From Rhodothermales bacterium (GTDB lineage: Bacteria > Bacteroidota > Rhodothermia > Rhodothermales > VXPQ01): 64,000 bases of DNA. Location of the stretch: the NCBI GenBank assembly GCA_951812345.1, contig OX638295.1, positions 748,497 through 812,496 of the forward strand, in the 5' to 3' direction. The notes beneath the pieces were generated by a model that saw nothing but the letters and a program-made list of their open reading frames with translations, did no database searches and was not told where the DNA came from. The translations under genes were made by a program, and so were the position numbers. Shown piece after piece: positions 16,123-42,024 of the stretch (the stretch's first letter is position 1; each line of letters opens with the position of its first letter).

Positions 16123-17007
16123 TTATTTGAGCAATTCCAATTTATTTCGCAGAACCGTTTCAAAATCATCGCGACGTACTGCATACGCTGCGAGGAGTTT
16201 TTCGTGAGATTTTTCCAGCGTAAGCACTTCCCAATGCCCGCGCGTCAATCGATACTTTCCGTCATTACCTCGTTCCACTTCCGGAACGAGCCATACGATA
16301 TCCCCATCACTGAGATCGTGGCTGGGATTCGAAGACGGCCCTCCGATCGCTTCAAAAAAAGGGCGATCAACAGCTACGGCCATTTTGGACCCCCATCGAC
16401 GCAGTGTTGGCACTTTGATTTGTAATTGCGGCATAAGTCTCTTTGCGCTGGACGAGCGCCAGTCCGGGCGCCGTGTCTCAACGGGGAACGGAGGGGTCGG
16501 CTGCACACTTCTTTCCAATTTCGCAAATTCGGATTGCATCCCGGGCCCGGAAAAATACACAGCCTGAATTTCCAAACCATACCAGGACAATCGTTCCTTA
16601 CTTCCACTGGCGATCACAAGGTCGATTTTTCCTGCCGGTCTTCCCGTTTCCGTTCCCTGCATGAACGGAACTTCTCTCGAGATCATGACCTTGTCCGATG
16701 GAAAACCAATGATATCTGCAAGCCATCGGACAACGACATGTTTCTCGTTGAATCTCTTGGGGCAGACAATCACAGGATCCCCTTCAGGGGTATCGATCAT
16801 GCCGTCCGCATCTGGCATATAACTGTGCAGCGAGCATACCCCGCCCTTTTTACTGCATGGCGGTTTTCCTTCTTGAAATGGACAGCAGGGGCGTTCATCC
16901 GCCCTGTTGTTTAGTGCTATCCTGGCAAGGCGATTTCTCTCAGAGGGCGATAAATCCAGAAAGGAATATCCGTACCACTCAGCGATACCATAGCGCGGTG
17001 CGGTCAT
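16123..17007 (-). CDS. NotI-family type II restriction endonuclease
   Basis: Four-Cys metal motif (CPF..CSK..VCS..VCP), then GKIDLV..LEIQAVY PD-(D/E)xK-like core and RPDWRSSSAKRLMPQL. More AT-rich than its neighbours. Confidence 0.8.
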   Translation of the reverse strand: MTAPRYGIAEWYGYSFLDLSPSERNRLARIALNNRADERPCCPFQEGKPPCSKKGGVCSLHSYMPDADGMIDTPEGDPVIVCPKRFNEKHVVVRWLADIIGFPSDKVMISREVPFMQGTETGRPAGKIDLVIASGSKERLSWYGLEIQAVYFSGPGMQSEFAKLERSVQPTPPFPVETRRPDWRSSSAKRLMPQLQIKVPTLRRWGSKMAVAVDRPFFEAIGGPSSNPSHDLSDGDIVWLVPEVERGNDGKYRLTRGHWEVLTLEKSHEKLLAAYAVRRDDFETVLRNKLELLK

Positions 17008-17019
17008 AATCAGAGTATC

Positions 17020-20665: not shown

Positions 20666-20902
20666 CGGTTCGGGAAAAGATGGAAGTAGAGCGCCACGGC
20701 GTAATGGTTTGCGCATGGCCTGGAAGATACCGCATACTATCTCTCGGGCGGCGCCTGTCATGTAACCAACGTGCTACGTATCGGCAAGGGGCATGATCCC
20801 TTTGCCATGCACCGGGATTGGTCTCTATATGATTTCGCATTTCTTCGATAATCCATGTATCATGCGTTCCAAACCACCCTTGCGATTATGTCGGATAAAG
20901 CC

Positions 20903-22468: not shown

Positions 22469-22550
22469 TCTCCCCGGATCCGCCGGGCCTTGCCCGGCCC
22501 ATGACTCGCACACAGAATTCAGGTAATAAACAAGGGAAGTTGTATCCGTC

Positions 22551-24099: not shown

Positions 24100-25873
<1,774 letters not shown>

Positions 25874-25923
25874 GATGTTTCCTTAATACTTGTCTGATGC
25901 CTCATGATGTCTATCCAGTGGTG

Positions 25924-26724
25924 TCACTGGAAGCGTTCTTTCATCCATTCCTGCCACGCGGGGTCGTCGCGGGCCGCGATGGCGGGCGCGTCGTCGCCGT
26001 ACAGGTAGATTCCGACGGAAGCCAGCACCTGATTCTCAAAGGGAAAAACGGTCACGGACCCAATGCCCGGCCCCGGATCGTCGAGCCGCAAAATCGCATA
26101 GGGTAGCGGCCCCTCCGGCGCGCGCTCCCGGATACCCGCAAGCGGCGGCGTGCCATCGGGAGACCGAAAACGCTCCCCCTCGGATATGTCCGCAATGCCG
26201 AGCGCATTGCACGCCGCGCTCCAGGCGTCGTCCAGAGAGCCGGTCGCCGGACTGGTGATCCGGATGATCGACGCGGGCTGCCCGCGAAAATGCGTCATGT
26301 AGCTTCGCAGGACGGCGAAGCAGCACGGCCAGTTGCTTTCGATTTCATCAAGATCCTTGTCCCACTCGTCGGCGTCCGCAAACACACTGTGCGCCACACG
26401 CACCACACACGTTCCCGAAGGGCGCGCCTCGACCGTCCACTCGCTGGTCATGGGCGGCGCTCCGGGGCGCCAGTCTTTTTCCAGGTTGACGAACCGGTGC
26501 GGCGGGTCCCAGACGGTCACGGTGGCGACGACATTCATTTCCAGTCCCGGTCCCATGTCCCAGACGATCAGGCCCCCGACCCATTCCTCGGTCGTGTTCG
26601 GAAGGAACCAGGAAGAAACTCCGGGTCCGGTGGCGACAGCCTTCCAGACTTCCTCTACGGTCCCCGGTACCTCGACCTCGACCTGGATCGACTGGCGACC
26701 GGACTTGTCGTGCTGGATGCTCAT
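25924..26724 (-). CDS. SRPBCC/AHSA1-domain protein, paralog 1
   Basis: Same motifs as 25070-25873; tandem duplicate. Confidence 0.8.
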   Translation of the reverse strand: MSIQHDKSGRQSIQVEVEVPGTVEEVWKAVATGPGVSSWFLPNTTEEWVGGLIVWDMGPGLEMNVVATVTVWDPPHRFVNLEKDWRPGAPPMTSEWTVEARPSGTCVVRVAHSVFADADEWDKDLDEIESNWPCCFAVLRSYMTHFRGQPASIIRITSPATGSLDDAWSAACNALGIADISEGERFRSPDGTPPLAGIRERAPEGPLPYAILRLDDPGPGIGSVTVFPFENQVLASVGIYLYGDDAPAIAARDDPAWQEWMKERFQ

Positions 26725-26854: not shown

Positions 26855-27910
26855 CTACGCCTGCATCCGCACGAGGGATTTTTGCTGCATGCGCTGCTGC
26901 CACTGGTCCACGACAACGGCCAGCACGATCACGGCGCCTTTTATGACGATTTGCCAGAACTCCGAGACCCCGAGTAGCACCATCCCGTTCACCAGCACCC
27001 CGATCACAAAGGCTCCGATAATGGTTCCGCCGATCGTGCCGCGTCCGCCCATCAGGGAGGCGCCCCCAAGGACCACTACGGCAATGGCGTTGAGTTCGAA
27101 GGTTTCCCCGGTCGCCGGATGGGCGGCGACCAGTTGCGAGGCGATGATCAGGCCGACCATGGCCGCGCAAAGCCCGGAGATCATGTAGGTGACCAGTTTC
27201 ACCCTGTTTACGCGCACCCCGGAGAGTTCCGCCGCTTTTTCGTTCCCGCCTATGGCGTAGACCTGCCGTCCGAACGGAGTTTTGCGTGCCACGAACGCTG
27301 CCGCAACGGCAAAGAGCGCCATCACCCAGATAGGGTAGGGCAGAGCCAGAAAGGTATCCGCTCCCAGCGCCGGGAAACCCGTATTGCCCAGATCATCCTG
27401 CCCGACCAGGTTGGCGAACGTTGCGCCGTCCGAGATCAGGAGCGCTGCCCCCCTTGCTATATACAGGGTGCCGAGCGTGGCGATGAACGGGGCCACGCCC
27501 AGCCGGGTGACGAGCCACCCGTTCAGGGCGCCGACCGCTATGCCTGCCACCAGTGTCAGCAGCATAACGATCGGCACGGCGAAGAAAATGGATACCCCGA
27601 ACGGGGGCAGGATCAACCCTTCGGTGAGCAGCCAGCCGGCCACCATCCCGCACAGCCCCACCACGGACCCCACCGACAGGTCGATACCGCCGCTCAGGAT
27701 CACGAAGGTCATGCCGATGCCCAGGATGGCGTTGATGGCGACCTGCTTGGTGAGGATGACGAGATTGCCCGTCGTCAGGAAGGCGGGCGTCAGCAGCGAA
27801 AATGCGATGAACAGGACAATCAGGGCAAGGTATGCCCGCGATTGCAGGAGCCACATCCGGAGCGGAAGGCGCCGGGATGTGGCCGGGACAGGTTGTGTAT
27901 GATCTCCCAT
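26855..27910 (-). CDS. sugar ABC transporter permease (RbsC-like)
   Basis: GGIDLSVGS, PFIATLG, YAIGGNEKAAELSG and ELNAIAVVVLGG motifs. Confidence 0.95.
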   Translation of the reverse strand: MGDHTQPVPATSRRLPLRMWLLQSRAYLALIVLFIAFSLLTPAFLTTGNLVILTKQVAINAILGIGMTFVILSGGIDLSVGSVVGLCGMVAGWLLTEGLILPPFGVSIFFAVPIVMLLTLVAGIAVGALNGWLVTRLGVAPFIATLGTLYIARGAALLISDGATFANLVGQDDLGNTGFPALGADTFLALPYPIWVMALFAVAAAFVARKTPFGRQVYAIGGNEKAAELSGVRVNRVKLVTYMISGLCAAMVGLIIASQLVAAHPATGETFELNAIAVVVLGGASLMGGRGTIGGTIIGAFVIGVLVNGMVLLGVSEFWQIVIKGAVIVLAVVVDQWQQRMQQKSLVRMQA

Positions 27911-27919
27911 GATGTTGGG

Positions 27920-29539
27920 TTATGCCACCTGTTCGTTGGGGTGTTCTGTGGATGGGGCAATTACCGAGGCGTCCGCAAGATGTTGTTCGGTGATGTCTTC
28001 GCCTTCGAGGGCGGCCGTGAGGCGGCCCCGCGCCATGACAAGCGCCCGGTCTGCAAGGGCTATGACCTCCTTCAGTTCCGAGGAAACGAACAGGATGCCC
28101 ATCCCCTGCGCCGCCAGATCGTCCACAATATGGAAAATGTCCGACTTGGCTGCGACATCGATGCCCCGGGTCGGTTCGTCCATCATGAGCACTCTGGGCT
28201 GCGTGAGAAGGCTTTTGGCCACCACCGCTTTCTGCTGGTTTCCGCCGCTCAGCGTAGCGATCGATTGCCGGGCGCTGGACACCCTGATCCCGAGGGTTTC
28301 GATCATGCGCCAGACTTCGCGATTTTCCCGGCGTCCGGATAGAGCGGGTCCTCTGGTGAAGCGCGAAAGGGCAGCGAGGCTAATATTTTTCGCCACGGAC
28401 ATATTCCGGAGCACTCCAAGCCGCTGCCGGTCCTCGGGAATGAGCGCCAGACCCGCTTGCAGGCGTTCGTCGATGCGCAATCCAGCGAGGGAGCGATCAC
28501 CGAGAAAAACGCTGCCCCGTGCATCGGGGTGCATTCCAAGGAGACATTCCAGCAGTTCGGTGCGTCCCGCTCCCATCAGCCCGTAGATGCCGACCGCCTC
28601 CCCTGCCCGGACCGTGAACGACACGTTTTTGATAAGATATCCTCCGCCATGCGGGCGCGGCAACGACAGGTTTTCGACGCGCAGCACGGGTTCTCCGATC
28701 GTTCGCGCCTCCTTGCGGAAGAGCGCTCCTTCACTGCGCCCGGACATGTTTTCGACGATCCAGGCCAGGGAAACGTCCTGGGCAGGCGCTTCGGCAACGA
28801 GCCGTCCGTCGCGGAGCACCGTGAACCGGTCGCCGATCCGCAAGCACTCGTCCAGTTTGTGCGAAATGTATACGATGGCGACGCCCTGTGCGGTGAGTTC
28901 CCCGACGATGCGAAGCAGGATTTCCGTTTCGGCGCGGCTCAGGGCCGAAGTCGGTTCGTCCATGATGAGAATGGATACATCCTCGGCCAGCGCCCGGGCA
29001 ATCTCGACGAGTTGCTGCTGCCCGATGCGCAGGTCTTCCACCAGCGTGTCCGGCGAGATGTCTTGTTCCAGCCGCGCCATCAGTGTCCGGGCGACCTCTT
29101 TTTGTTTTCCATGCTGCACCGTGCCCACCCCCGAAACGAGTTCGCGGCCCGTGAACAGGTTTTCGCTCACGGACAGATTGGGAAACAAGGTGAGTTCCTG
29201 ATGAATGACGCCGATGCCCAGCGCCCGCCCTTCCCGCGGCGATGCCGGAGCAATGGATTGGTCCCGGAGCAGGAGTTGTCCGCTTGTGGGGGATTCTATC
29301 CCGGCCAGGATGCGCGTCAGCGTCGATTTGCCAGCCCCGTTTTCTCCGATGAGCACATTGACGCAGCCGGGGTATACATTGAAATCCACGCCGTCCAGCG
29401 CCGTCGTTCCCGGATACCGCTTCACGATCCCTTCGGTGCGCAGCACAGGTTCCGTCTTGTCCGAGCCGTTGGAGGAACCAGTCCGGCGAGGGAGAGCCGT
29501 TCCGTTTTTGTCGTTCGCTATGTTTTCGGCATGTGTCAT
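27920..29539 (-). CDS. sugar ABC transporter ATPase (RbsA-like, two domains)
   Basis: GENGAGKST, IMDEPTS, LSGGNQQK and DEPTRGID motifs. Confidence 0.95.
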   Translation of the reverse strand: MTHAENIANDKNGTALPRRTGSSNGSDKTEPVLRTEGIVKRYPGTTALDGVDFNVYPGCVNVLIGENGAGKSTLTRILAGIESPTSGQLLLRDQSIAPASPREGRALGIGVIHQELTLFPNLSVSENLFTGRELVSGVGTVQHGKQKEVARTLMARLEQDISPDTLVEDLRIGQQQLVEIARALAEDVSILIMDEPTSALSRAETEILLRIVGELTAQGVAIVYISHKLDECLRIGDRFTVLRDGRLVAEAPAQDVSLAWIVENMSGRSEGALFRKEARTIGEPVLRVENLSLPRPHGGGYLIKNVSFTVRAGEAVGIYGLMGAGRTELLECLLGMHPDARGSVFLGDRSLAGLRIDERLQAGLALIPEDRQRLGVLRNMSVAKNISLAALSRFTRGPALSGRRENREVWRMIETLGIRVSSARQSIATLSGGNQQKAVVAKSLLTQPRVLMMDEPTRGIDVAAKSDIFHIVDDLAAQGMGILFVSSELKEVIALADRALVMARGRLTAALEGEDITEQHLADASVIAPSTEHPNEQVA

Positions 29540-30243
29540 TCGCTGTCCCGGATGACGATCCGGACCGGCGTAATCGCCGGCAGGTCTGTCCCTTGCAATG
29601 CGAAGGCCCCGTGGAAGTCGATGTCGCGCCCCGGCAGCGATGCCGGATTCAGCTCGCCCAGTACCGTTTCGAGCAAGCGGGCATGCATGGCGTGGGAGGC
29701 GTTCGCGTGCTCCATCTGGTTTACGAATCGGTCGAAGGTCATGAACGGCAATGCATCCCGCAGCGCCGTGCCGCGCAGCACGGGGCCAATCTGCAGACGT
29801 ACGTTGGCCATGTCGTCGAGGGGCGGCACATCCAGTAGCAGAAAACCTGCGCGCGAGGTGGTATCTGCTGCAAGAACGCGTCCTGTTCCCTGCACAATAA
29901 AATTATACGGCCGATCTCCTTCCCGGCGCCCGTATTGCGTCGAGGCCGCCGCTTCGTCCGTTTCCAGAGCCTCCAGCAGCATGGTCAGGTCCGCTGCCTC
30001 GTTTTCGACGGTCGGGAGGATGCGCGTTTCCCAGTTTTCTTCCACGAACGTCTCTGCGTCGAAGGCGGGTTGGGCTTCTTCGATAATAGCCTTGCCCGTG
30101 GCCGGGTCCAGCGGGCGGATTTTACACCCGGCGGTTGCAAGGGCCGCTGTGATGAGGATGCTCGCAAGAGACAAGAGGAACGTGTTGCGCATGGTTGAGC
30201 GAGCTGGTGATCGGACCTGCTCCGCTGTTCCGATCGGTTTCAT
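29536..30243 (-). CDS. DUF2291-family lipoprotein
   Basis: Lipobox TAGC and LQIGPVLRGTALRDA..F..FVNQ signature. Lies next to the ABC ATPase; the start may be the downstream MRNT. Confidence 0.8.
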   Translation of the reverse strand: MKPIGTAEQVRSPARSTMRNTFLLSLASILITAALATAGCKIRPLDPATGKAIIEEAQPAFDAETFVEENWETRILPTVENEAADLTMLLEALETDEAAASTQYGRREGDRPYNFIVQGTGRVLAADTTSRAGFLLLDVPPLDDMANVRLQIGPVLRGTALRDALPFMTFDRFVNQMEHANASHAMHARLLETVLGELNPASLPGRDIDFHGAFALQGTDLPAITPVRIVIRDSE

Positions 30244-31760
30244 GGATTGGGCGGGGACTCGCCGGGTTCGTGCAAGGCGCGCGCCACAGCGTGCCGCCAG
30301 CCTTCGCAGATTCGTTGGCGTTCCTTGTTCGGGCGCCGGGGTTCGAACCGGTCCAGCGAGCGCGGCAGGGCGGCCAGCGCATCAAGCGAATCCCGGTATC
30401 CGAGCGTCAGACCGGCCATATAGGCCGCTCCGAGTGCGGAAAGGTCTTCGGCCCGGTTACGGAGCACCGGAGTTCCCAGTACATCCGCCTGAAACTGCAT
30501 GAGCGTATCGTTGCGACTGGCGCCCCCATCCGCCAGGAGGACATGCAGCGCGGCGTTGTGCGTTGCGCCACTCGCCGTCTTTGCCATTGCCTCGAACACA
30601 TCGCGCACCTGAAAAGCGATGGATTCCACGACAGCGCGGGCCAGATGAGCGGCGGTCGTGCCCCGCGTAATCCCGGTCACGAGGCCGCGCGCGTTTTCGT
30701 TCCAGTGCGGAGCGCCCAGTCCCACGAAGGCGGGGACAACATACAGCCCTTCGGTGCAGTCCGTTTCTTCGGCAAGCGCGGCGACCTGCGAAGGATCGTC
30801 CAGACCCAGCAGGTCGGCAATCCATTGCAGGGCCGATCCCGTCACCGAAATATTGCCTTCCAGTGCATAGGTGGTCTGGTTTCCCAGCTTCCAGGCCACC
30901 GTGGTGGCGAGGCCGTGTTCGGAAAAAGCGAGGCCGGACAGCGGGGTCATGAGCGAGCTGCCCGTGCCGTAGGTGGCCTTCACCGCACCGGGTCGGAACC
31001 CGGCCTGCCCGAAGAGGGCGGCATGGGAGTCTCCCATCATTGCAGCGACAGGAATACCTCCGGGCAGGACGCCGTGTGGGACCGTTTCCCCGAACAGGGC
31101 GCCGGACGGCATGATTTCCGGGAGCATGGTTTCCGGGATGCCAAACGTTTCCGTCAGGTCATGATCCCAGGCGCCCGTGTGCAGGTTGAAGAGTTGCGTA
31201 CGCGAGGCATTGCTCGCATCGCACCGGTGTGCTTTGCCGCCCGTCAGATTCCAGAGCACCCAGCTGTCGATCGTTCCGGCGAGGAGTTCGCCGCCTTCTG
31301 CCCGGCGCCGGCCTTCGGGCGCCTGATCCAGCAACCACCGGATCTTCGACGCGGAGAACAGCGGGTCGACAGGCAGGCCGGTACGTTCCAGGAGCATGGG
31401 TTCCTGTCCTTCGCGGCGCAGCGTGTTGCAGAAAGGGCCGGTGCGGCGGCATTGCCAAACGATGACCGGCCCGGCGGGACGGCCCGTATCCCGTTCCCAC
31501 ACCACCACGGATTCCCGCTGGTTCGTTACGGCCAGACCCTGGGGAGTCGGGTTTCCGGCCTCCGCGAGACACATTTCCACGGCTGCCAGCACGCTTTTCC
31601 ACAGCAACATAGGGTCCTGCTCCACCCAGCCCGGCTGCGGAAACGATACGGGCACGGGGCGGGCGGCTTTGTGCCGGATCGTTCCGTCGGAAGCATCGAC
31701 CAGCACGGCTTTCGTGTGCGTGGTGCCCTGGTCTATGGCAAGAATCAGGGGGCTGTGCAT
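30240..31760 (-). CDS. FGGY/glycerol kinase-family kinase, probable D-apulose kinase (AplK-like)
   Basis: LAIDQGTT, TNQRES, NASRT, GDSHAAL and KATYGTGS motifs. Start placed at MHSPL; substrate inferred from context. Confidence 0.85.
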   Translation of the reverse strand: MHSPLILAIDQGTTHTKAVLVDASDGTIRHKAARPVPVSFPQPGWVEQDPMLLWKSVLAAVEMCLAEAGNPTPQGLAVTNQRESVVVWERDTGRPAGPVIVWQCRRTGPFCNTLRREGQEPMLLERTGLPVDPLFSASKIRWLLDQAPEGRRRAEGGELLAGTIDSWVLWNLTGGKAHRCDASNASRTQLFNLHTGAWDHDLTETFGIPETMLPEIMPSGALFGETVPHGVLPGGIPVAAMMGDSHAALFGQAGFRPGAVKATYGTGSSLMTPLSGLAFSEHGLATTVAWKLGNQTTYALEGNISVTGSALQWIADLLGLDDPSQVAALAEETDCTEGLYVVPAFVGLGAPHWNENARGLVTGITRGTTAAHLARAVVESIAFQVRDVFEAMAKTASGATHNAALHVLLADGGASRNDTLMQFQADVLGTPVLRNRAEDLSALGAAYMAGLTLGYRDSLDALAALPRSLDRFEPRRPNKERQRICEGWRHAVARALHEPGESPPNP

Positions 31761-32701
31761 CAGCGGACCGGCTTCTTGAGTTCCAGCGCAGCGTCCCGGA
31801 TGCCTTCGGGGGTAAGACCGAAATGCTCCAGCAGCCATTTCGTGTCGCCGGTGGGCGCGAAGACGCCGGGTACGCCAAGGATGCGCATCGGGACAGGCAG
31901 GTGCTGCACCACAACCTCCGCCACAGCGCTGCCCAGTCCGCCGAACGTGGTGTGTTCTTCCGCGGTCACGATGGCCCCGGTTTCACGGGCGGCGGCAAGC
32001 ACCGCTTCCCGGTCGATGGGGCGTACGGTCGCCATGTTCAGCACCCGGGACTCTATACCCTGTGCTGCCAGCAGGTCGGCCGCTTCCAGGACCCGGGCCG
32101 TCATGACGCCATTCGCAATGAGCGTCACGTCGCCGCCGGGGCGCAGCAGGCTTGCCTTGCCGAAGGCGAATGCGTAGTCGGCGTCGTGCAGGGCGGGCAC
32201 GCCCATGCGGCTCAACCGCAGGAAGACCGGCCCTGCAACCTGCGCCGCCGCCCGGACGGCCTGTGCGGTTTCGAGGGGATCGGCAGGCGCCGTCACCGTG
32301 ATGTTCGCAATGGCCCGCACCCAGGCGAAATCCTCGATGGAATGGTGTGTTGCTCCGAGCGCGCCGTACGCCAGCCCGCTACTCACGCCCACCAGTTTCA
32401 CGTTCGCGTTCGAATACGCCACGTCCGCCTTGATTTGCTCCAGCGCCCGCCCGGTCATAAAACAGGAGGCCGAGCAGACGAACGGTATTTTCCCGGCATT
32501 CGCCAGCCCGGCTCCCACACCTACGAGATTCTGTTCTGCAATCCCCACGTTGATCAGCCGGTCGGGGAAACGTTCACGGAACGCCCCGGTTTTGCTCGAC
32601 CCCACCGAGTCGTTGTTCACCACAACGATGCGCTCATCGGTTTCGCCCAGCGCAACGAGGGTTTCGGAAAAGGCGTCGCGGCAATCGTACAGCATGGTCA
32701 T
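31760..32701 (-). CDS. transketolase C-terminal subunit (AptB-like)
   Basis: YDCRDAF, NVGIAEQN, GATHHSIED and AEEH..GGLG motifs. Confidence 0.9.
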   Translation of the reverse strand: MTMLYDCRDAFSETLVALGETDERIVVVNNDSVGSSKTGAFRERFPDRLINVGIAEQNLVGVGAGLANAGKIPFVCSASCFMTGRALEQIKADVAYSNANVKLVGVSSGLAYGALGATHHSIEDFAWVRAIANITVTAPADPLETAQAVRAAAQVAGPVFLRLSRMGVPALHDADYAFAFGKASLLRPGGDVTLIANGVMTARVLEAADLLAAQGIESRVLNMATVRPIDREAVLAAARETGAIVTAEEHTTFGGLGSAVAEVVVQHLPVPMRILGVPGVFAPTGDTKWLLEHFGLTPEGIRDAALELKKPVR

Positions 32702-33552
32702 GCGTCCCGCAAGGCGGCCTCCAGTTCGGCGATCGCTCGCGCCAGTTCGTCTTGCGAGGGCACTTTGTGGTGCCACTCCACCCGGTCTTCCATGAACGAG
32801 ACCCCCCTGCCCTTATGGGTATGGGCGATGATGCACGAAGGCTTGCCTGGTTCGAAGGGCAGGCGGCCGAAGATATGAAGCAATGCCTTGTAGTCATGCC
32901 CGTCCACATGATCCACTGCCCAGCCGAAGGCCCGCCACTTGTCGGCCAGTGGATCCAGCCGATTGGTGTTGGCTGTGGCGTCTCCCTGTTGCAGCCCGTT
33001 CCGGTCGATGATCAGCGTCAGGTTGTCCAGGCTGCGATGCCCGGCGGTCATGGCCGCTTCCCAGTTGCTTCCTTCCTGCAATTCCCCGTCCCCGGTCAGC
33101 ACGAATACGCGCCATGCGGCCCGGTCCAGTTTTCCTCCAATGGCGGCTCCCACGGCCACGGGAAGGCCATGTCCCAACGGCCCCGTATTCGTTTCCACGC
33201 CGGGGGCCTTGGTCCGGTCGGGGTGGCCGTTGAGCCGGGAGAGCGGCTGCATGTAGGTGTCGAGTTCCTCCAGAGGAAAGAAGCCCGCATACGCCAGCGC
33301 AGTATAGAGGGCCCCCGAGCAATGACCCTTGCTCATGATGAATCGGTCCCGGTTCGGATCCGCCGGGTCGTCCGGGTTCACCGACAGCACTTCACCGTAG
33401 AGGGTCGTCAGAATATCGGCTGCCGACAGATCGCCGCCGGTATGCCCCATGCCGGCTTCATGGATCATGCGCAGGTTGCGCCGACGCATTTCGTTGGCCT
33501 GACGGCGTAGCCGCTCGATCTTCCGGGCAATGGATGTGTGCGCTTCGGACAT
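32698..33552 (-). CDS. transketolase N-terminal subunit (AptA-like)
   Basis: GHTGGDLS, MSKGH, NTGPLGHG and GDGELQEGSNWEA (TPP motif). Confidence 0.92.
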   Translation of the reverse strand: MSEAHTSIARKIERLRRQANEMRRRNLRMIHEAGMGHTGGDLSAADILTTLYGEVLSVNPDDPADPNRDRFIMSKGHCSGALYTALAYAGFFPLEELDTYMQPLSRLNGHPDRTKAPGVETNTGPLGHGLPVAVGAAIGGKLDRAAWRVFVLTGDGELQEGSNWEAAMTAGHRSLDNLTLIIDRNGLQQGDATANTNRLDPLADKWRAFGWAVDHVDGHDYKALLHIFGRLPFEPGKPSCIIAHTHKGRGVSFMEDRVEWHHKVPSQDELARAIAELEAALRDA

Positions 33553-33572: not shown

Positions 33573-34907
33573 TCAGAATCGCGTGTTGACGATGTTGGCG
33601 AAGTCGGATCCGAACGTATATGAAAGGGCAATGGACCCGGAGAGTTCGAAGTCCGTCGCCAGTTCGCGTTGCTGCAGCAGGATTTCTTCCAGGGAGGCAT
33701 TACCGGCGGGAAGCGCCAGTTGATCCTGGACCATTTCAAAATCCCCCTGTATGCGGAGCGATAACCCCTCCAGCAGTCGTACCGAAACGTACCCGAATAA
33801 TTCGGCGCTGCGCTTGGTCACGTCGTGGAAATAATGAGACCCTTCTATGCCCCCGTAGATATCGCCCCACGGTTGCCGGATCGCCACGGAAGCTTCCAGT
33901 TGCTGTTGCAGGAGCGTTTCTTTGGTTTCGTTGAAGATGGTTTGCTCGAAGTAATCCACGTAGGAGTACCCGAGTCTGTACACGACGGTTATGGCGCGGC
34001 GCGTGGCCTGTTCGTAGGGGAGCACACTGTACTCGACGCCCGGCGCCACTTCGCCCCAGTGCCGGAGATTTCGGTCGTTGCGGGTTATATAGTCTCCGAA
34101 GAGGCCCACCGACCAGTGCTGACCGAGGCTCCGGATGGCGTAACTGTCGAAGCCGTGCCGGGAGAGGCTGCTTCTTACGTCAGGCTGATCCTCCCGTTTG
34201 ATTTTCACCAGATCGTAGTTGAAGTAGGGGCGCAGGCGTATTTTCCACTGTTCGCTTATATGATCGGCGTAGAAGCCCCAGCGGGCGTCGAACACTGTCC
34301 GATTGGATTCTTTTTCCAGTTCGATGCCTCCTGCGTAGGCCGTGAATATCCAGTGCCTCCATTCGTCGTGCGTTTGCGCACCGGCCCCTTCCTGATTTTC
34401 TCTGGAGTAGTCGAGCGAGAATCCGGAGATGGATTGCACCTGCGCGACGTACGGCACGAGGCCCAGCCGGATTGCCGAGTTGACAGCTTCGCGGGCCTCG
34501 TCGTTCGTTGCATTCTGGCCCACTGTGTGCTCGAACGTGTACTCGACGCTGGCGTAATCGCCGCGCCCCAGAAACGAAAGTTGGTACTGCCGCCCGTTGC
34601 TGCCCGTACGCTGATCGGTGATGAATACGTGCACATCGGCCTGCTCCGGATCGCGCACGTAGTTCACGAAGGTGATTTCGCTGCGGATGTGGTTAAAATC
34701 ACAGCGGTCGCAATCCAGATAGACACGCAATGCGTTGCTTGCCGGGAGGGCGGCATGCAGCGTGTCGGACAAGATGTCCTGGGCTGCCAGCGGGGCAGGG
34801 AGGGCAAGACATCCCCAAAGGAGCAGTCGGCAAAGGATGCGGCACGGTATCCGCCGCTGAGAAAAAGGCATGAACGGAATTTCGGTTTTTTCTTTACTTT
34901 CCAGCAA
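33573..34907 (-). CDS. uncharacterised outer-membrane protein
   Basis: Signal peptide ending LAAQ, VYLDCDRC motif, aromatic-rich amphipathic strands, terminal Phe. Confidence 0.7.
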   Translation of the reverse strand: MLESKEKTEIPFMPFSQRRIPCRILCRLLLWGCLALPAPLAAQDILSDTLHAALPASNALRVYLDCDRCDFNHIRSEITFVNYVRDPEQADVHVFITDQRTGSNGRQYQLSFLGRGDYASVEYTFEHTVGQNATNDEAREAVNSAIRLGLVPYVAQVQSISGFSLDYSRENQEGAGAQTHDEWRHWIFTAYAGGIELEKESNRTVFDARWGFYADHISEQWKIRLRPYFNYDLVKIKREDQPDVRSSLSRHGFDSYAIRSLGQHWSVGLFGDYITRNDRNLRHWGEVAPGVEYSVLPYEQATRRAITVVYRLGYSYVDYFEQTIFNETKETLLQQQLEASVAIRQPWGDIYGGIEGSHYFHDVTKRSAELFGYVSVRLLEGLSLRIQGDFEMVQDQLALPAGNASLEEILLQQRELATDFELSGSIALSYTFGSDFANIVNTRF

Positions 34908-34919: not shown

Positions 34920-35906
<987 letters not shown>

Positions 35907-35950: not shown

Positions 35951-37474
35951 TTAGTCTTTTCCAACCGTCACGATGATCCGACGGTACCGGTACAGAACGG
36001 GTTCGCCGTCGTCATGTGCCGTGAGAATGACTTGAATCTCTGCGCCGACAGCATTTTCCGGGACGACAAGGCTTGCTTCCATGGACGAAGCATTCGTTAT
36101 GGAGACATCGCCCGGATACGAGCCGGCCTCGGAATAGACCCACCAGTCGAATGTGAGATGGTCTCCATCGGGGTCTGACGATCCCTCGGCGCTCAGGCGA
36201 ATCGTCTCGCCGATGTGTGCGGTGATATGGAGAGGGTCCAGACCGGCGTCGCCGTTCACGACCAGCATCGGGTTGTGGTTCGCCCCGGCGAAGTCCGGCG
36301 TGTTGCTCCAGTCCGCCCGTGCGGCGATGTCGTGCTGGTACCCTTCCCGCCAGCGCCACACCGTGGCGTGGTTCGTGGTGTACGTGTTGCCGTCAAAGGC
36401 CAGCACGGTATCGTCCGAATTGGTCCAGATAGGCCGGGATTCTCCTTCGGGCTGCGATACGGCATAGCGGCCGCCCCAGCCCCCGTAACTCGGGCTGACG
36501 TGTCCGGCCAGCCCGTTCCGGAACAGGTTCATGAACGAGGGGGTGTCGCCTTCCATCAGGTAGGCTGTAGCCGGGTAACGTGTCCCCAGCGGCCCGTGCC
36601 CGGTGCGGATATTTTCCGATAGCCAGGGATTATCGACGATGTCGAAGTTCGGCCCCTCGAACATCCCGTGGAAGTGGTCCCCGGAAATGCCCACCCAGGT
36701 GGCGTATTTGTAGTCGTCACCGTCATGCGGCGAGCTGGGCGTCACTACATAGAACAGGTCGGGAAATTCCTGCCGCATCCAGGGGCCGGAATCGTCCTGG
36801 TCGGAAATCGTGTACACGCGCAGTTTGGCCACGAAGGCGTCCAGTTCTTCCGAGGTGCGCGTCTCGCGGACTTTCCACAGGGCCTGCGCAAGGCAGTTGG
36901 CCCCTCCCCAGACGCTGATCCACAAGGGGCGGTCGTCCTCCTTGTCCACGGCGGCGATGATGTGTTCGGAGCCTTCCGTATCGTTTCCCTTGCCGACGCC
37001 GTTCATGCCGTATACATCCCGGCACGTTTTCACCTGCGAGAGCAGAAAATCCGCCTCCGGGTAGCCGTCGGCGTGTACGATGAGGTTGTTGCGCACTTCA
37101 CGGTATGCCTCGATATGGCCCCGGATTTTGTCCGCCCGTGTGGTGTCCCGCATCCAGACGGACGTGGTGGCGAGCAGGCCCTCTACATCCATTTCGTTGG
37201 CGTAGAGCAGGAAGCGGACGAGCGATTGGGCGTCGTCCGGTTCGTTTTCGATGTCCGTGAGGACGAGCACCCGCGATTTGGAGGATGGAGCGGGCAGGGG
37301 GGCGTTCTGTGCCTCGCCGGCGGAGTTGGAGCAGGCGGTGGGGAGGAGCGTCGCGGCAATGAGCAGGGCTGCGAGCGAGCCTCCGGATTGTTGCACCGGG
37401 GTTTTGCTTTCCGCGGTTTTCGCAGTAAGAATGCGGGCCCCGGCAGGTTCGGAGCATGAGAAGGCGTCGCGCAT
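35951..37474 (-). CDS. DUF1593 (nucleoside-hydrolase-like) lipoprotein with C-terminal Ig-like domain
   Basis: VLTDIENEPDDAQS, WGGANCLAQAL, ISDQDD, MEGDTPS, GGWGGRY and ANHNP motifs. Lipobox PTAC; start uncertain. Confidence 0.85.
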   Translation of the reverse strand: MRDAFSCSEPAGARILTAKTAESKTPVQQSGGSLAALLIAATLLPTACSNSAGEAQNAPLPAPSSKSRVLVLTDIENEPDDAQSLVRFLLYANEMDVEGLLATTSVWMRDTTRADKIRGHIEAYREVRNNLIVHADGYPEADFLLSQVKTCRDVYGMNGVGKGNDTEGSEHIIAAVDKEDDRPLWISVWGGANCLAQALWKVRETRTSEELDAFVAKLRVYTISDQDDSGPWMRQEFPDLFYVVTPSSPHDGDDYKYATWVGISGDHFHGMFEGPNFDIVDNPWLSENIRTGHGPLGTRYPATAYLMEGDTPSFMNLFRNGLAGHVSPSYGGWGGRYAVSQPEGESRPIWTNSDDTVLAFDGNTYTTNHATVWRWREGYQHDIAARADWSNTPDFAGANHNPMLVVNGDAGLDPLHITAHIGETIRLSAEGSSDPDGDHLTFDWWVYSEAGSYPGDVSITNASSMEASLVVPENAVGAEIQVILTAHDDGEPVLYRYRRIIVTVGKD

Positions 37475-37750
37475 GGGGAGAAAAAGGGGCCGGATTTTGT
37501 TCGGGGGGCGTGTTTGGGGCGGCTGGATGGCGGGTGCGTTTGTCCCGGGAGGGCATCTCGTGAAGCGTCGTCCGGGGAGCGTTTATCCTAATTAGACAAG
37601 ATAGGAAGGAGCGAGGAAAAAGGGGGAGGGGAAGGGGAGAGAAAAAGGCGCGGCGCGGTTTGCAGGCGGTTCGAAATCGCCTGTGGGTGGCAATGAGGGC
37701 CCCGTTAATTTTTTACAACCGTCACGATAACCCGGCAGTACCGGGCAGCA

Positions 37751-39118
37751 TTATTCGCTATCAGATTCCAGCCCAGGAGTCCACCAGGCGTCCAGACGGG
37801 CCCGCAGTTCCCGGATGCGTTCGGCCTGTTCGGGATGCTGCGCCAGATTCACGTTTTCCAGCGGGTCTTCCGCCAGATGGTAGAGTTCCAGCGGCTCGTT
37901 CTCGATTTCAGGGAGGATGAGCTTCCAGTTGCCTGCCCGGATCCAGCGAAACAACACGTTGGCGTCCGGACGATCCCAATCTTTGGCTGTGTGTCTGAAA
38001 ATGCTGCCGAATACGGCGTCGCGGGCAAGCGGCTCGCCGTGCAAGGCTCTTGGCAGGAGGTTCAGCCCCGGAAGGTTTTCGGGGATATCGAGTCCCGCTG
38101 CGGCAAGGCTGGTCGGCAACAGGTCGATCGAGCTGACAAGTTTGTCGGAAACTCCGGGGGCGATACGGCCGGCCCAATGCAGAAGGACGGGCGTGCGCAC
38201 GCCCAGATCGTACTGGGACTGCTTGCTCTTCCAGTGCGGAGGGCGGACGGTCCCGTCGCTGCGGTCAACCAGCCGGTCCGCCTCGTTTTCCGCGGTCACC
38301 CAGCCATTGTCGACGATGAAGATAAACATCGTTTCTTCGTATTCGCCTTCCTCTTTCATCAGGTCGATCAGTTCGCCCACGGTCGCATCGAACCAGAGAA
38401 TGCTCGCATAGTATCGCAACGTCCGTTCGTGCAGGCCGAGGTCGGCGAACGGCGTCTCGTATTCAGCGGGGGCATTGTGGGGCAGGTGCGGCAGAAACGG
38501 CGCATACCAGATGAACATGGGTTCGTTCTTGTGCCGCTGTACGAAATCGCGGATCGGCTCCATCCCCTTCCGGCCTATGGTGAGACCGAGGTCGCCGTGG
38601 CGTTCTCCGACGGTCATGCCTTCACTGAATCCGCCGTTCCGGTAGGAGCCTTCCCAGAACTTTCCGGTCTGCAGGCTTGCATAGTCCGCTTCCGCCAGGA
38701 GCGAGGGGGCGGGGCGTTGCCGCAGGAGGAGCTGGTTCACTATGCCTCTTCGTACTCCAGGCTCGGGGTCGTTGAAGGTCAATCCGTGCTCATGCTGGTG
38801 CTTGCCTGTGATCATCGTAGCCAGACTGGGACGGCACAGGCTGGTTGGATTGTAGCCGTGGCGAAAGACCAGCGATTGCGCTGCAAGGTCGTCAATCCGC
38901 GGGGTTTGCACCACGTCATGTCCCATGAACCCGAAATCGGTGAAGGACTGATCGTCGGAGATAATCCAGACGATATTGGGGAGCGGGGCCAGATTCGACC
39001 CGGCAGGATCGTTTACATCGGGGATCTGTGCAGCGTTTTCGCCGCTGCAGCCGATGAATGCTAGAGCAGCGAAGAAGGAAACAATGGGCGCGAGTATACC
39101 TGGGCGGAGTGGGGTCAT
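37751..39118 (-). CDS. S1 sulfatase lipoprotein
   Basis: PNIVWIISDD, SLCRPSL..TG, TGKFW, PHLPH and DNG motifs. Start placed at MTPLRP. Confidence 0.88.
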   Translation of the reverse strand: MTPLRPGILAPIVSFFAALAFIGCSGENAAQIPDVNDPAGSNLAPLPNIVWIISDDQSFTDFGFMGHDVVQTPRIDDLAAQSLVFRHGYNPTSLCRPSLATMITGKHQHEHGLTFNDPEPGVRRGIVNQLLLRQRPAPSLLAEADYASLQTGKFWEGSYRNGGFSEGMTVGERHGDLGLTIGRKGMEPIRDFVQRHKNEPMFIWYAPFLPHLPHNAPAEYETPFADLGLHERTLRYYASILWFDATVGELIDLMKEEGEYEETMFIFIVDNGWVTAENEADRLVDRSDGTVRPPHWKSKQSQYDLGVRTPVLLHWAGRIAPGVSDKLVSSIDLLPTSLAAAGLDIPENLPGLNLLPRALHGEPLARDAVFGSIFRHTAKDWDRPDANVLFRWIRAGNWKLILPEIENEPLELYHLAEDPLENVNLAQHPEQAERIRELRARLDAWWTPGLESDSE

Positions 39119-39148
39119 CGGTAATGAGGGGTGCTGGCTATATTTCCA

Positions 39149-39179
39149 TGCAATTATGCATTTTAAATGCATAATTGCA
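39149..39179. promoter_or_regulatory. perfect 31-bp palindrome, candidate operator of the divergent sulfatases
   Basis: TGCAATTATGCATTT-T-AAATGCATAATTGCA in the AT-rich intergenic region. Confidence 0.7.
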
Positions 39180-39257
39180 ATAAAAAATCCAGTCCATCCC
39201 CCTTGCAGCCCCCTGTCATATATTATTGCTCCATGTCCGTTCAAACGACGCTGCGCC

Positions 39258-40835
39258 ATGCGTTCCATGTATCGCTTGCCCATCCACGTATGTTCGATTA
39301 CCGCGCTGCTCGTTGTGCTTGCAGCGGCAACGGCCTGCCAGGCGCAAACGCCTTCCCCTGTCGCCTCCCGCCCGAACATCATTTTTCTTCTCACCGACGA
39401 TCAGCGGGCGGACGCCCTCGGAATCTCCGGTCACCCGGTGCTTGAGACGCCCCACATCGACCGGCTCGCGCGTGACGGTGTCCGGTTCACAGAGGCCCAT
39501 GTCGTGGCGCCTGTGTGCATGCCGAGCCGCGTGAGTTTCATGAACGGGCAGTACGAGCGCGTGCATCGGATCGGTTTCTCGTCGCCGAATGTGCTTTCGG
39601 AAACCCAGTGGAATCAAACCTATCCCGCCCTATTGCGCAACGCAGGCTATCACGTCGGATTCGTCGGGAAAATCGGTCTCCAGCAATATTCGTTTCGCGG
39701 CAGCCCGCTCGAAAAGTTCGATTTCTGGCGGGGCCATGACGACTGGGCGCGGTTCTGGCCCAAGGAGTTCGATCATCTCGCTATTTACCACGACTCGGAG
39801 GGCGAGATCGTAACCCCGATCATGAGCGAGAGCATCGAGCGTTTTCTCGACCAGGCGCCCGCCGATCGCCCGTTTATGCTATCGGTCAGTTTTTCGGCGC
39901 CGCACGGGTCCATTTCCGGCAGTATGCTTTATCCGGACGAACAGGGCACGGATCGTATGTTCACCCCTGCGAACACGCATCCCGAACTGCTGGATCACCC
40001 GGTGTACGGTTCCTTGTACCGGGATCGCGAGATTGCGCTTCCGGCTTCCCGGGGAGACGATACGGCGCAGCATATTCCGCTCGACGTGCACCCGCGCGAA
40101 GGGCGCATGACCACGTATTCGTACAGCTACGCTGGCGACGAGGTGCTGCGGGAGTATCATATTCGTTACTACCAGTTGATCCATGGACTGGATATCGCGG
40201 TCGGCAAACTGCGCGAGAGCCTCGAACGGCGGGGTCTGGCGGACAACACGATCGTCATTTTTTCGAGCGATCACGGGTTGTTGATGGGCGAGTATTCGAT
40301 GGGCGGCAAATCCCTGCTCTACGATGTGGCTACGCGCGTTCCGCTCATCGTGTACGACCCGCGAATGCCGGTCGGCGAGCGCGGCGTGACAATCGACGAG
40401 CTTGCGCTCAGCATCGATGTCCCGGCGACCATCGTTTCCTACGCCGGTCTGGATGCGCCGCAGACCATGCAGGGGCGCAGCCTGTGTCCGCTTATCGAGA
40501 ATCCCGAGGCGTCATGGCGGGACGAGATATTCCTTGAAAGCCTCTTCCTGCTGCGTACGGGCCCTTTCATCGAGGCTGTCCGGACGAAGGAATGGAAATA
40601 CGTCCGTTATTTTCGCAGCGATACGTCGCAGTACACTGCGCAAGATGTGGATTTCGAGGGGCGAGCGCCGGATTTCGAGCAATTGTTCGATCTGGTCAAC
40701 GATCCTGCCGAGGAGCGCAACCTGATCGGAGACACATCGCAAGCGGCCCGGATTGCTGCGTTCCGGGAACGCAGCAAGCAATACTCGATGGAACTGGTGC
40801 GGGCCGGCAAGGATATGAAGAAGTATCCCCGGTAG
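39258..40835 (+). CDS. S1 sulfatase
   Basis: RPNIIFLLTDD, VCMPSR, APH, SSDHG and RVPLIVYDP motifs. Confidence 0.92.
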   Translation: MRSMYRLPIHVCSITALLVVLAAATACQAQTPSPVASRPNIIFLLTDDQRADALGISGHPVLETPHIDRLARDGVRFTEAHVVAPVCMPSRVSFMNGQYERVHRIGFSSPNVLSETQWNQTYPALLRNAGYHVGFVGKIGLQQYSFRGSPLEKFDFWRGHDDWARFWPKEFDHLAIYHDSEGEIVTPIMSESIERFLDQAPADRPFMLSVSFSAPHGSISGSMLYPDEQGTDRMFTPANTHPELLDHPVYGSLYRDREIALPASRGDDTAQHIPLDVHPREGRMTTYSYSYAGDEVLREYHIRYYQLIHGLDIAVGKLRESLERRGLADNTIVIFSSDHGLLMGEYSMGGKSLLYDVATRVPLIVYDPRMPVGERGVTIDELALSIDVPATIVSYAGLDAPQTMQGRSLCPLIENPEASWRDEIFLESLFLLRTGPFIEAVRTKEWKYVRYFRSDTSQYTAQDVDFEGRAPDFEQLFDLVNDPAEERNLIGDTSQAARIAAFRERSKQYSMELVRAGKDMKKYPR

Positions 40836-40863
40836 AATGAACCATGTATGAGGCAGGTGCAAA

Positions 40864-42024
40864 ATGACTCGATATAATTATATACATAACTATATACGGT
40901 ATCTGTTTTTGCCGGTCCTGGCGTGTCTATGCGCTGTAAACGCCCTGCCGGTGGAAGCGTCCGACACGGAGACCATTTCTACCCCAAGCACTTGTGAAGT
41001 AGGCGATCTGGTATGGAGCGACGAATTCGACGAGGATGGTCTTCCGAACTCTTCGAATTGGCGCTATGAAACAGGAGGACACGGATGGGGCAATCAGGAG
41101 TTGCAGTTTTACACGATAGCACGTTCGAAGAATGCTCGGGTAGAGGACGGAAGCCTGATCATCGAGGCGCACCAGGAGTCCTTTTCAGGCAGCGGTTATA
41201 CGTCCACCCGTTTGCTTTCGAGGCAGGAATGGACCTACGGCCGGTTCGAGGCCAGCGCCATCCTGCCGTCCGGCAGAGGAACATGGCCCGCCATATGGAT
41301 GCTGCCGGATCTGAGCCAATATGGAGGGTGGCCCCGGGCCGGCGAGATTGACATCATGGAGCATGTGGGGTTTGAGCCGGACCGGGTTCATTCCACAATG
41401 CATACAGAAGCATACAATCATTTGAGGGGTACGCAAAAGGGCGCATACATCACGGTGCCGACGGCCCGTTCGGCATTCAATGTGTATGCGGTGGAATGGA
41501 CGCCGTCCGAGATACGCAGCTATGTCAATGACACGCATTATTTTACGTTTCGGAACGAACGCTTGACCAATCCGCAAGCCGACGATCGGCACTGGCCGTT
41601 CGATCACCCGTTCCATTTTATTTTCAACATCGCCGTGGGCGGGACCTGGGGCGGGCAGCAGGGGATAGATCCGAACATCTGGCCCCAGCAGCTCCAGGTC
41701 GACTATGTACGCGTGTACGAATGCGGCGGGGTGGTCAGCATCGAATCCGAAGAGTTACCTGAAAGTGTCGGACTCGATCAGAACTATCCCAATCCGTTCA
41801 ATCCCGAAACGTCCATTCGTTTCGCGTTGCCTCGAACGGGCCATGTCCGCCTTGCCGTGTACGATGCGGTCGGCAGGGAGGTGGCGGTGCTGGTGGATGG
41901 GGTACGGGCGCAAGGAACCCACACGCAAATTTTCGAGGCGCCGGGCTTGCCGACGGGCGTGTACCTGTACGAACTGTCCACGCCCGAAACGGTTTTGACG
42001 AAAAGGATGGTATTCGTCAAATAG
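40864..42024 (+). CDS. GH16 laminarinase-like glycoside hydrolase with T9SS C-terminal domain
   Basis: WSDEFD, WPAIWML and GEIDIME motifs; QNYPNPFNP..VYD..GREV sorting domain. Confidence 0.93.
   Translation: MTRYNYIHNYIRYLFLPVLACLCAVNALPVEASDTETISTPSTCEVGDLVWSDEFDEDGLPNSSNWRYETGGHGWGNQELQFYTIARSKNARVEDGSLIIEAHQESFSGSGYTSTRLLSRQEWTYGRFEASAILPSGRGTWPAIWMLPDLSQYGGWPRAGEIDIMEHVGFEPDRVHSTMHTEAYNHLRGTQKGAYITVPTARSAFNVYAVEWTPSEIRSYVNDTHYFTFRNERLTNPQADDRHWPFDHPFHFIFNIAVGGTWGGQQGIDPNIWPQQLQVDYVRVYECGGVVSIESEELPESVGLDQNYPNPFNPETSIRFALPRTGHVRLAVYDAVGREVAVLVDGVRAQGTHTQIFEAPGLPTGVYLYELSTPETVLTKRMVFVK

Follow-up and report, generated by a model that had tools for sequence, protein, structure and literature searches.

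A PF07632 protein encoded at the head of a D-apiose-type operon in a Rhodothermales bacterium is a candidate apiose-releasing hydrolase

The PF07632 gene and the operon it heads

The DNA analysed here (the window) is a stretch of 64,000 nucleotides from contig OX638295.1 of a Rhodothermales bacterium (GenBank assembly GCA_951812345.1). On its minus strand, positions 35951..37474 form a single long open reading frame (ORF) with an ATG start, coding for a protein of 507 amino acids (aa), P0001, which is the subject of this study. P0001 matches the Pfam family PF07632 (Sde182_NH-like, formerly DUF1593) over aa 68-337 (E 4.9e-107; 357.9 bits, cut-off 26.8) and PF21027 (Sde0182_C) over aa 424-504 (E 1.3e-25; 90.2 bits, cut-off 27). 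Because of these two matches we regard the ORF as a genuine gene and not a chance reading frame. The Pfam scan at E<=1e-5 returned these two families only, with neither PF01156 (nucleoside hydrolases) nor PF13204 (glycoside hydrolase family GH140), and no NCBIfam model matched P0001. The gene and its parts are:

35951..37474, minus strand: PF07632/PF21027 gene, candidate apiose-releasing hydrolase (ORF, Pfam, PDB entry 2yhg_A, AlphaFold2 and Foldseek)
37331..37474, minus strand: N-terminal export signal, aa 1-48, ending L-P-T-A-C48, a putative lipobox (sequence)
36464..37273, minus strand: nucleoside-hydrolase-like domain, aa 68-337 (Pfam PF07632, Foldseek)
37232..37258, minus strand: motif TDIENEPDD, aa 73-81, an acidic cluster closing strand beta-1 (sequence, alignment)
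35963..36205, minus strand: C-terminal beta-sandwich of the PKD/cadherin-like type, aa 424-504 (Pfam PF21027, Foldseek, profile search)

A sequence search of the PDB (phmmer) found one solved relative, 2YHG (2yhg_A, 'cellulose-binding protein' Sde_0182; E 5e-100), which is the C-terminal region of Sde_0182 from Saccharophagus degradans (Hehemann, Marsters and Boraston 2011). P0001 shares with it the family, the two-domain architecture, the acidic cluster and the conserved GGWGG and EGDTP blocks. It differs from Sde_0182 as a stand-alone putative lipoprotein with the motif TDIENEPDD, whose subfamily is found inside apiose operons. An earlier interpretation made without database searches (the sequence-only reading) had called the family uncharacterised, and indeed its sole studied member, Sde_0182, has no known activity. 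The relevant paper on PF07632, Sde_0182 and 2YHG in the open literature is a review of nucleoside hydrolases, according to which furanose binding has already been proposed in print for Sde_0182 (PMC8910321, in part, citing Hehemann et al. 2011). The open literature searched, with subscription journals outside its coverage, contained no publication linking PF07632 to apiose, nothing on 'DUF1593' by name, and nothing on 'nucleoside hydrolase' together with apiose. Likewise, titles and abstracts of the apiosidase and apiogalacturonan literature hold nothing on PF07632, and the family goes unmentioned in the portions of PMC11229556 covered here.

The hydrophobic stretch at the N-terminus of P0001 ends in L44-P45-T46-A47-C48. 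Lipoboxes follow the pattern [LVI][ASTVI][GAS]C, so that of P0001 is non-canonical because of the Pro at position -3. A Cys stands at the equivalent place in three other Rhodothermales orthologues (IFTAC, LLFAC, LLAGC), i.e. in 4/4 orthologues of this order and not elsewhere. Cytophagales orthologues resemble ordinary secretory proteins cleaved by signal peptidase I; that of Paenibacillus lacks a signal peptide. The earlier assignment as a lipoprotein is plausible: the Cys shared by all four Rhodothermales orthologues speaks for it, the Pro at -3 against it.

The PF07632 gene is the 5'-most of 12 genes on the same strand with gaps of -79 to 130 bp, in agreement with its earlier description as the first gene of the cluster. 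The other members of the array are, in order:

34920..35906, minus strand: xylose-isomerase-like TIM-barrel isomerase (P0003), putative D-apiose isomerase (Pfam PF01261; 3ktc_A, E 5.7e-99)
33573..34907, minus strand: 444-aa outer-membrane beta-barrel-like protein (P0002; signal peptide, C-terminal ...NTRF)
32698..33552, minus strand: N-terminal subunit of a split transketolase, AptA-like, TKN (Pfam PF00456; 51% identity to ECSF_RS02710)
31760..32776, minus strand: C-terminal subunit of the split transketolase, AptB-like, TKC (PF02779/PF02780; 42% identity to ECSF_RS02715)
30240..31838, minus strand: FGGY kinase, AplK-like, a glycerol-kinase paralogue (Pfam; 45% identity to ECSF_RS02700)
29536..30243, minus strand: DUF2291 lipoprotein of an ATP-binding cassette (ABC) system (Pfam, E 1e-52; 26% identity to the DUF2291 protein of the E. 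coli cluster)
27920..29539, minus strand: sugar ABC transporter ATPase (Pfam; 46% identity to ECSF_RS02685)
26855..27910, minus strand: sugar ABC transporter permease (Pfam; 57% identity to ECSF_RS02680)
25070..26724, minus strand: two tandem SRPBCC/AHSA1-like genes of 266 and 267 aa, 57% identical (Pfam, blastp)
24100..25065, minus strand: RbsB-type periplasmic sugar-binding protein, last gene of the array (Pfam PF13407; 5ibq_A/4ry0_A, E 7e-120)

The true start of the AptB-like subunit probably lies downstream of the ORF start. The FGGY kinase scores 551 bits against the glycerol kinase model TIGR01311, below its cut-off of 590, and a true GlpK (752.9 bits) is encoded elsewhere in the same genome. 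The best 120 homologues of the TIM-barrel isomerase carry generic names only; 3KTC, its match in the PDB, is presumably a Pectobacterium protein. A model of the binding protein superimposes on 4RY0 (R. etli RHE_PF00037, EFI-511357) with a template modelling (TM) score of 0.94 at 67% identity, and 5IBQ is reportedly RHE_PF00037 with bound D-apiose. In NCBIfam, no apiose-specific model was matched; the array genes match generic transketolase, GlpK-like and RbsB models.

The D-apiose degradation I gene set, a transketolase route with apsI, aplK, aptA and aptB, was reportedly established by Carter et al. in 2018. The corresponding clusters are apsI, aplK, aptA and aptB in P. carotovorum and ECSF_RS02670-02715 in E. 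coli SE15, and carriers grow on apiose, as given for E. coli ST131/ST1193, E. fergusonii and P. carotovorum only (PMC13001218, in part). The enzyme names used here follow the same source. Under its screening rule, a locus must match 5 or more of the 10 SE15 cluster genes, aplK, aptA and aptB among them, with >=40% identity and >=80% coverage inside a run of 10 consecutive genes (PMC13001218, in part). In the window six genes pass this rule, all inside the 12-gene array: the AptA-, AptB- and AplK-like genes, the ATPase and the permease with the identities given above, and the binding protein with 45%, each over >=92% of the length. DUF2291 misses the threshold. Isomerase, AptA, AptB, AplK, DUF2291, ATPase, permease and binding protein make up the same 8-gene set as D-apiose degradation I, and on these sequence comparisons the array is a true homologue of the growth-validated D-apiose cluster.

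The remaining array genes, P0002 and the SRPBCC pair, were rejected as pathway parts. The arrays of the related genomes G030, G053 and G005 consist of PF07632, isomerase, TKN, TKC, FGGY kinase, DUF2291, ATPase, permease and binding protein; hence we interpret P0002 and the SRPBCC pair, which are absent from all 160 related loci, as lineage-specific insertions. P0002 is intact (85% identity) in the congeners G006 and G002, both without the operon, and the SRPBCC pair is intact in G006, where the operon is lost. P0002 is probably not part of the apiose pathway. It has no Pfam match, and its Atlas neighbours are hypothetical proteins, with one cluster containing 12% DUF481. An unrelated small AHSA1-like gene is found in the Paenibacillus locus (L105:5555-6082).

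Predicted fold and conserved residues

An AlphaFold model of P0001, computed from an alignment of 37 sequences, has a mean predicted local distance difference test (pLDDT) score of 87.2, with values below 50 in aa 1-33. In Foldseek it matches 2YHG best (target-normalised TM 0.92, E 3.4e-50, 38% identity), followed by the nucleoside hydrolases IAG-NH of T. brucei and T. vivax, yeast URH1, RihA and YbeK of E. coli and plant NRh, as well as by XopQ. These nucleoside-hydrolase matches (4I70, 8RIH, 3G5I, 1YOE, 6ZK1) have probability 1.0, target-normalised TM scores of 0.45-0.54 and 10-12% identity. The comparison with nucleoside hydrolases that the sequence-only reading had put forward thus yields a predicted nucleoside-hydrolase fold. 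For the C-terminal domain, Foldseek returned PKD and cadherin-like domains, and a profile search gave weak matches to the PKD domains of collagenases.

The Asp-rich motif TDIENEPDD, to which attention had been drawn earlier, is present at aa 73-81. Among 37 diverse family members of at least five subfamilies, D74, D80, D81 and D310 are invariant, and so are W189, W333, G309 and P312. The exact TDIENEPDD marks the subfamily of P0001 (subfamily A), in which 80 of the 83 collected proteins carry it. The N-terminal fingerprint of nucleoside hydrolases is DXDXXXDD; P0001 reads D-I-E-N-E-P-D-D, with the spacing kept and Glu at the second acidic position. A local hhalign comparison with E. coli RihA puts TDIENEPDD over LDCDPGHDD at the same spacing, so that Glu76 would stand at the second Asp of the nucleoside hydrolases; the overall probability of this alignment is only 1.2%, which is not significant, and we use the placement of the N-terminal motif alone.

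With the Ca2+-dependent nucleoside hydrolases (IU-NH, IAG-NH, RihA/YbeK; PF01156) P0001 has in common the predicted fold and, at motif level only, D-x-[D/E]-x-x-x-D-D at the end of strand beta-1. It differs from them by the low identity, the lack of a sequence-level match and the Glu in place of the second Asp. Furthermore, the PF07632 family protein is monomeric and carries an extra beta-sandwich at the site where nucleoside hydrolases dimerize (PMC8910321, in part).

Linkage to apiose genes, fusions and surroundings

Linkage between PF07632 and apiose genes was counted in both directions within a radius of 10 kb. The forward count covers the best 80 PF07632 loci (48-76% identity), 19 of which end at contig ends. 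A split transketolase is found in 44 of these loci, an RbsB-type binding protein in 43, DUF2291 in 41, a fucose-isomerase-like gene in 40, an FGGY kinase in 22 and a TIM-barrel isomerase in 2. Further neighbours are GH127 (21/80), BT_1020-like genes (15/80), pectate lyases (10/80) and GH140 (5/80). The transketolase-positive loci represent 17 of 38 taxon labels (Rhodothermales, several Cytophagales genera, Acidobacteriota, Verrucomicrobiota, Paenibacillus). In Cytophagales the PF07632 gene is flanked by the transketolase genes on one side and by the binding-protein gene on the other, in Rhodothermales it directly precedes the isomerase gene, and this variation of gene order between linked groups argues for selection on the linkage itself. 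The Paenibacillus copies have catabolic genes as neighbours, and the locus retrieved includes no gene for a monosaccharide transporter.

The reverse count covers the best 80 AptA-like loci (58-75% identity) of Chloroflexota, Acidobacteriota, Alphaproteobacteria and Actinomycetota. AptB-like genes are present in 77 and FGGY kinases in 70 of them, TIM-barrel isomerases in 32 and fucose-isomerase-like genes in 24; a PF07632 gene is found in 17, compared to 6 with GH140. These PF07632 genes belong to several subfamilies, including Actinoplanes relatives with TDMEQDD in which the gene adjoins the isomerase gene. Compared to the E. coli SE15 cluster, a PF07632 gene is hence added in the window and in 17 of 80 related loci. 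The neighbourhood enrichment anticipated by the sequence-only reading is positive both ways (44/80 forward, 17/80 reverse) and spans several phyla.

Among 61 related genomes, PF07632 occurs in 18 and a close copy of the array's transketolase gene (>=70% identity) in 6. Both occur together in 5 genomes, where about 1.8 would be expected under independence, the genomes not being independent samples, and 4 genomes have them side by side. The genomes G032 and G016 possess the operon without an adjoining PF07632 gene. Upstream of the apiose operon of G016 (L204:5643-7706, plus strand) lie genes for an AraC regulator and for a 687-aa protein whose only annotated part is an N-terminal DUF5060. The same domain is carried by a PF07632 paralogue (L105:8621-9874) and by a GH140-PF07632 fusion protein (P0243).

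The isomerase slot is filled in many loci by the fucose-isomerase-like gene (PF02952; L035:6520-7989, L036:5950-7368, L100:12763-14283 and others), which never shares a locus with the TIM-barrel isomerase gene in the 160 loci. E. coli uses two genes of the short-chain dehydrogenase/reductase family in this slot (PMC13001218, in part). With the fucose-isomerase-like gene, the apiose route may have a third way, not described so far, of carrying out its first step.

To our knowledge, GH140 is the only sequence-defined bacterial apiosidase family. No GH140 gene had been recognised in the window, and this extends to the whole 2.8-Mb genome: the best match to PF13204, far from the window, reaches 24.4 bits and stays below the cut-off of 26.5. 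No match above the cut-off was found in Paenibacillus silviterrae or in a sister Rhodothermales genome. PF13204 matches (those above the cut-off in brackets) number 4 (4) in Dyadobacter beijingensis, 4 (3) in Larkinella terrae and 6 (5) in a Bryobacterales genome. As a control, 9 GH140 loci were inspected; BT_1020-like genes are near 6 of them, PF07632 near 2 and transketolase near 1. This control is weak because it covers only 9 loci, one of which is L100 itself, where GH140 adjoins a PF07632 orthologue.

A HMMER scan of 1.84 billion cluster representatives returned 5,328 relatives at E<=1e-3; tightening the threshold to E<=1e-10 leaves 2,682, and to E<=1e-30, 839. Out of the top 150 relatives, 68 have at least 600 aa, and the first 54 of these were scanned for extra domains. 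No other Pfam domain was found in 24 of the 54; carbohydrate-binding modules (CBM2, 6, 9, 4_9, 35) occur in 9, esterase-type domains in 6, PL14 in 1 and BNR in 1. P0201, P0169 and P0130 consist of a carbohydrate-binding domain (CBM2, CBM6 or F5/8 type C) and the PF07632 module only, an architecture typical of a catalytic module. Orthologues in loci without transketolase are fused to pectic acid lyase (L101, L072; in L092 on a paralogue), to a GH88/105-like domain (L069) or to a sulfatase (L032), and a paralogue in L084 is fused to a GDSL esterase. The fused orthologues adjoin GH28, GH127, GH43, GH78 and SusC/D genes. In P0125, P0128, P0132 and P0151, two matched stretches each indicate two PF07632 modules per polypeptide.

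Upstream of the operon, on the same strand, lie:

37475..37750, minus strand: 276-bp gap separating the PF07632 gene from the sulfatase gene upstream (sequence)
37751..39394, minus strand: sulfatase gene (Pfam PF00884 from aa 139)

A consensus scan of the gap found no sigma-70-type promoter and no intrinsic terminator. The gap likely holds the operon promoter; co-transcription of the sulfatase gene and the PF07632 gene may also occur. The true start of the sulfatase is probably near 38980. The Pirellulaceae orthologue of PF07632 mentioned above (L032:8213-11377) is fused to a distantly related sulfatase; a shared sulfatase association was set aside as the two sulfatases are only 23% identical. 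The region directly upstream of the operon (37751-42024) holds a divergent pair of sulfatase genes together with a GH16 gene that includes a sorting domain of the type IX secretion system. At the other end (20855-23930, plus strand), genes for GH32 (fructan/sucrose hydrolase) and a sugar transporter of the major facilitator superfamily converge on the operon. Genes for a NotI-like restriction endonuclease and a D12-class adenine methyltransferase (16123-18054, minus strand) are located in a stretch with a lower G+C content (0.536) than the window as a whole (about 0.60).

In the congeners G006 (L199, G006:C1:358000-377000) and G002 (L200, G002:C1:1360000-1377000), the glycan-use island is in decay throughout. 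The PF07632 gene, the isomerase gene, both sulfatase genes, GH16 and GH32 survive only as fragments; a deletion has removed everything from the transketolase genes through the permease gene.

Proposed function and alternatives

A hydrolase encoded in an operon for the import and catabolism of a monosaccharide would, as the most economical explanation, release that same monosaccharide, here D-apiose. Nucleoside hydrolases hold the cis-diol of ribose via Ca2+, and beta-D-apiofuranose has a cis-2,3-diol. In Sde_0182 the Ca2+ ion is retained, and nucleosides are not turned over (PMC8910321, in part). The furanose cis-diol is likely the handle common to both, the bond proposed for P0001 being an O-glycoside, unlike that of the nucleoside hydrolases. 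We therefore propose P0001 as a Ca2+-dependent furanosidase on a nucleoside-hydrolase scaffold that would free D-apiose for the adjacent transporter, and consider the chances of this proposal to be evenly balanced.

For substrate, catalysis and Ca2+ dependence we infer the following sequence of events. P0001 would be exported, probably lipid-anchored, and would cut D-apiose from apiosides, be it apiose-bearing pectin fragments (apiogalacturonan or rhamnogalacturonan II, RG-II) or small apiosyl glycosides. The acidic cluster of D74, E76/E78, D80, D81 and D310 would hold Ca2+, which would chelate the cis-2,3-diol of a terminal beta-D-apiofuranosyl residue together with a water molecule. A carboxylate would activate this Ca2+-bound water for a direct, inverting attack at C1, chemistry that appears plausible for an apioside. 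The RbsB-type binding protein would take over the freed apiose and the ABC transporter would import it; the TIM-barrel isomerase would then isomerise the sugar, the AplK-like kinase would phosphorylate it and the AptA/AptB-like split transketolase would cleave it. Apiose is a signature sugar of RG-II, of duckweed and seagrass apiogalacturonans and of more than 1,200 plant glycosides (PMC10602602, in part).

With the GH140 enzyme BT1012 of B. thetaiotaomicron, P0001 would share the product proposed here, free D-apiose, and the class of substrate, apiose borne on a galacturonan backbone. BT1012 cleaves D-Apif-beta-1,2-D-GalA, and B. thetaiotaomicron secretes the apiose set free (bioRxiv 10.64898/2026.03.13.711244, in part). 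Like GH140, PF07632 occurs in pectin and RG-II loci. In contrast to GH140, PF07632 is an unrelated sequence family and is found inside catabolic operons, whereas in the small control GH140 loci go with RG-II depolymerisation (BT_1020-like 6/9) and rarely with catabolism (transketolase 1/9).

A number of observations weigh against our proposal. No acid catalyst was identified in P0001, and a Glu takes the place of the catalytic Asp of the nucleoside hydrolases. The PF07632-family profile finds no nucleoside hydrolase among PDB sequences at E<=10, and the hhalign comparison with RihA lacks significance (probability 1.2%). The sole studied PF07632 member is without known activity, and no member of the family has enzymatic evidence. 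Among the forward loci, 36/80 show no transketolase (19/80 end at contig ends), and Dyadobacter alone contributes 20 of the 44 positive ones; 13 of the 18 related genomes with PF07632 are without a close copy of the array's transketolase gene. Since a PF07632 gene is missing from the 10-kb surroundings of 63 of the 80 transketolase loci, and since the E. coli SE15 cluster as annotated is without a glycosidase and takes up free apiose, the apiose pathway does not need P0001. The co-loss of the PF07632 gene and the operon in G006 and G002 was dropped as apiose-specific evidence, because the neighbouring sulfatase, GH16 and GH32 genes are broken as well. Finally, of 5 other genomes whose clusters are linked to PF07632, 3 possess GH140, in Dyadobacter beijingensis with one copy about 11 kb away from the PF07632 gene, and 2 of the 54 long relatives bear a fused GH140 apiosidase-like domain; such coexistence and fusion suggest complementary rather than identical activities.

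Accordingly, P0001 could cut a different bond in the same substrate, an apiose-bearing pectin, with GH140-type or other enzymes performing the final release. It might take off a residue borne by apiose, act on a different furanoside (L-arabinofuranose, aceric acid) or split apiose-apiose links only. Apart from the fusions and the neighbouring GH140 genes (adjoining the orthologue in L100, at some distance in Dyadobacter beijingensis), the RG-II-type neighbours GH127 and BT_1020-like, the presence of several PF07632 subfamilies inside one locus, and a distribution of the family wider than apiose clusters are in line with this idea. However, the PF07632 gene sits inside the monosaccharide operon of Cytophagales and directly upstream of the isomerase gene in Rhodothermales, three genomes with linked clusters have no GH140, and the GH140-fused copies carry TDIGGD[AP]DD, i.e. 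they belong to another subfamily than P0001. On this evidence we consider such a different bond possible, if rather unlikely.

Sde_0182 is inactive on purine and pyrimidine nucleosides and has been described as a putative furanose-interacting module (PMC8910321, in part). P0001 might accordingly be a non-catalytic binder of furanose or apiose, either a surface glycan-binding lipoprotein or a CBM-like module catching glycans rich in apiose for uptake, for which its likely lipid anchor, its position as first gene of the operon and the frequent fusion of PF07632 domains to catalytic domains (lyases, esterases) would speak. We judge this improbable in view of the architectures of P0201, P0169 and P0130, of the cytoplasmic location of the Paenibacillus copies, and of the 2-4 diverged paralogues per locus, as in glycosidase families; moreover, the invariant W189, W333, G309-D310 and P312 exceed the needs of a metal site.

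The tight linkage to the binding-protein gene would also fit an action on free or borate-bound apiose in the periplasm, as a mutarotase, as a ring-form isomerase or by release from borate esters, where a Ca2+/cis-diol site might compete with borate. This appears very improbable, as the fusions to CBM, lyase and esterase domains point to polymer substrates, the chemistry is without precedent on the nucleoside-hydrolase fold, and E. coli apiose clusters work without a PF07632 protein.

That P0001 is a true nucleoside or riboside hydrolase feeding ribose to an RbsB-type ribose transporter is hardly credible in spite of the predicted fold, the title of the closest solved binding protein (ribose transporter protein) and the nucleoside hydrolases in ribose-utilisation loci of Bacteroidetes (bioRxiv 10.1101/574913, in part), given the inactivity of Sde_0182 on nucleosides, the lack of a PF01156 match in P0001, the homology of the array to the apiose cluster, and a ribose catabolism that needs no isomerase, AplK-like kinase or split transketolase.

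Returning to apiose release by P0001, the proposal may be extended to the family. In this tentative and less than even extension, the whole of PF07632 would consist of Ca2+-dependent O-glycosidases on the nucleoside-hydrolase scaffold, with a -1 subsite that grips beta-D-apiofuranose at its cis-diol. Its subfamilies (xNEPDD, GGDPDD, GADPDD, GExDD and others) would differ in the aglycone, which may be galacturonan, apiose or plant glycosides, and that of P0001 would be the 'operon apiosidase' supplying the ABC transporter and the transketolase route.

If apiose release by P0001 holds true, PF07632 would represent a second apiosidase family, unrelated to GH140, on a fold hitherto associated with the cleavage of N-ribosidic bonds. 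This would provide a function for 2YHG, an orphan since 2011, and for a family of 5,328 cluster representatives, as well as enzymes for dismantling pectin and apiosylated natural products. It would also explain the source of apiose for those bacteria that possess apiose operons and lack GH140.

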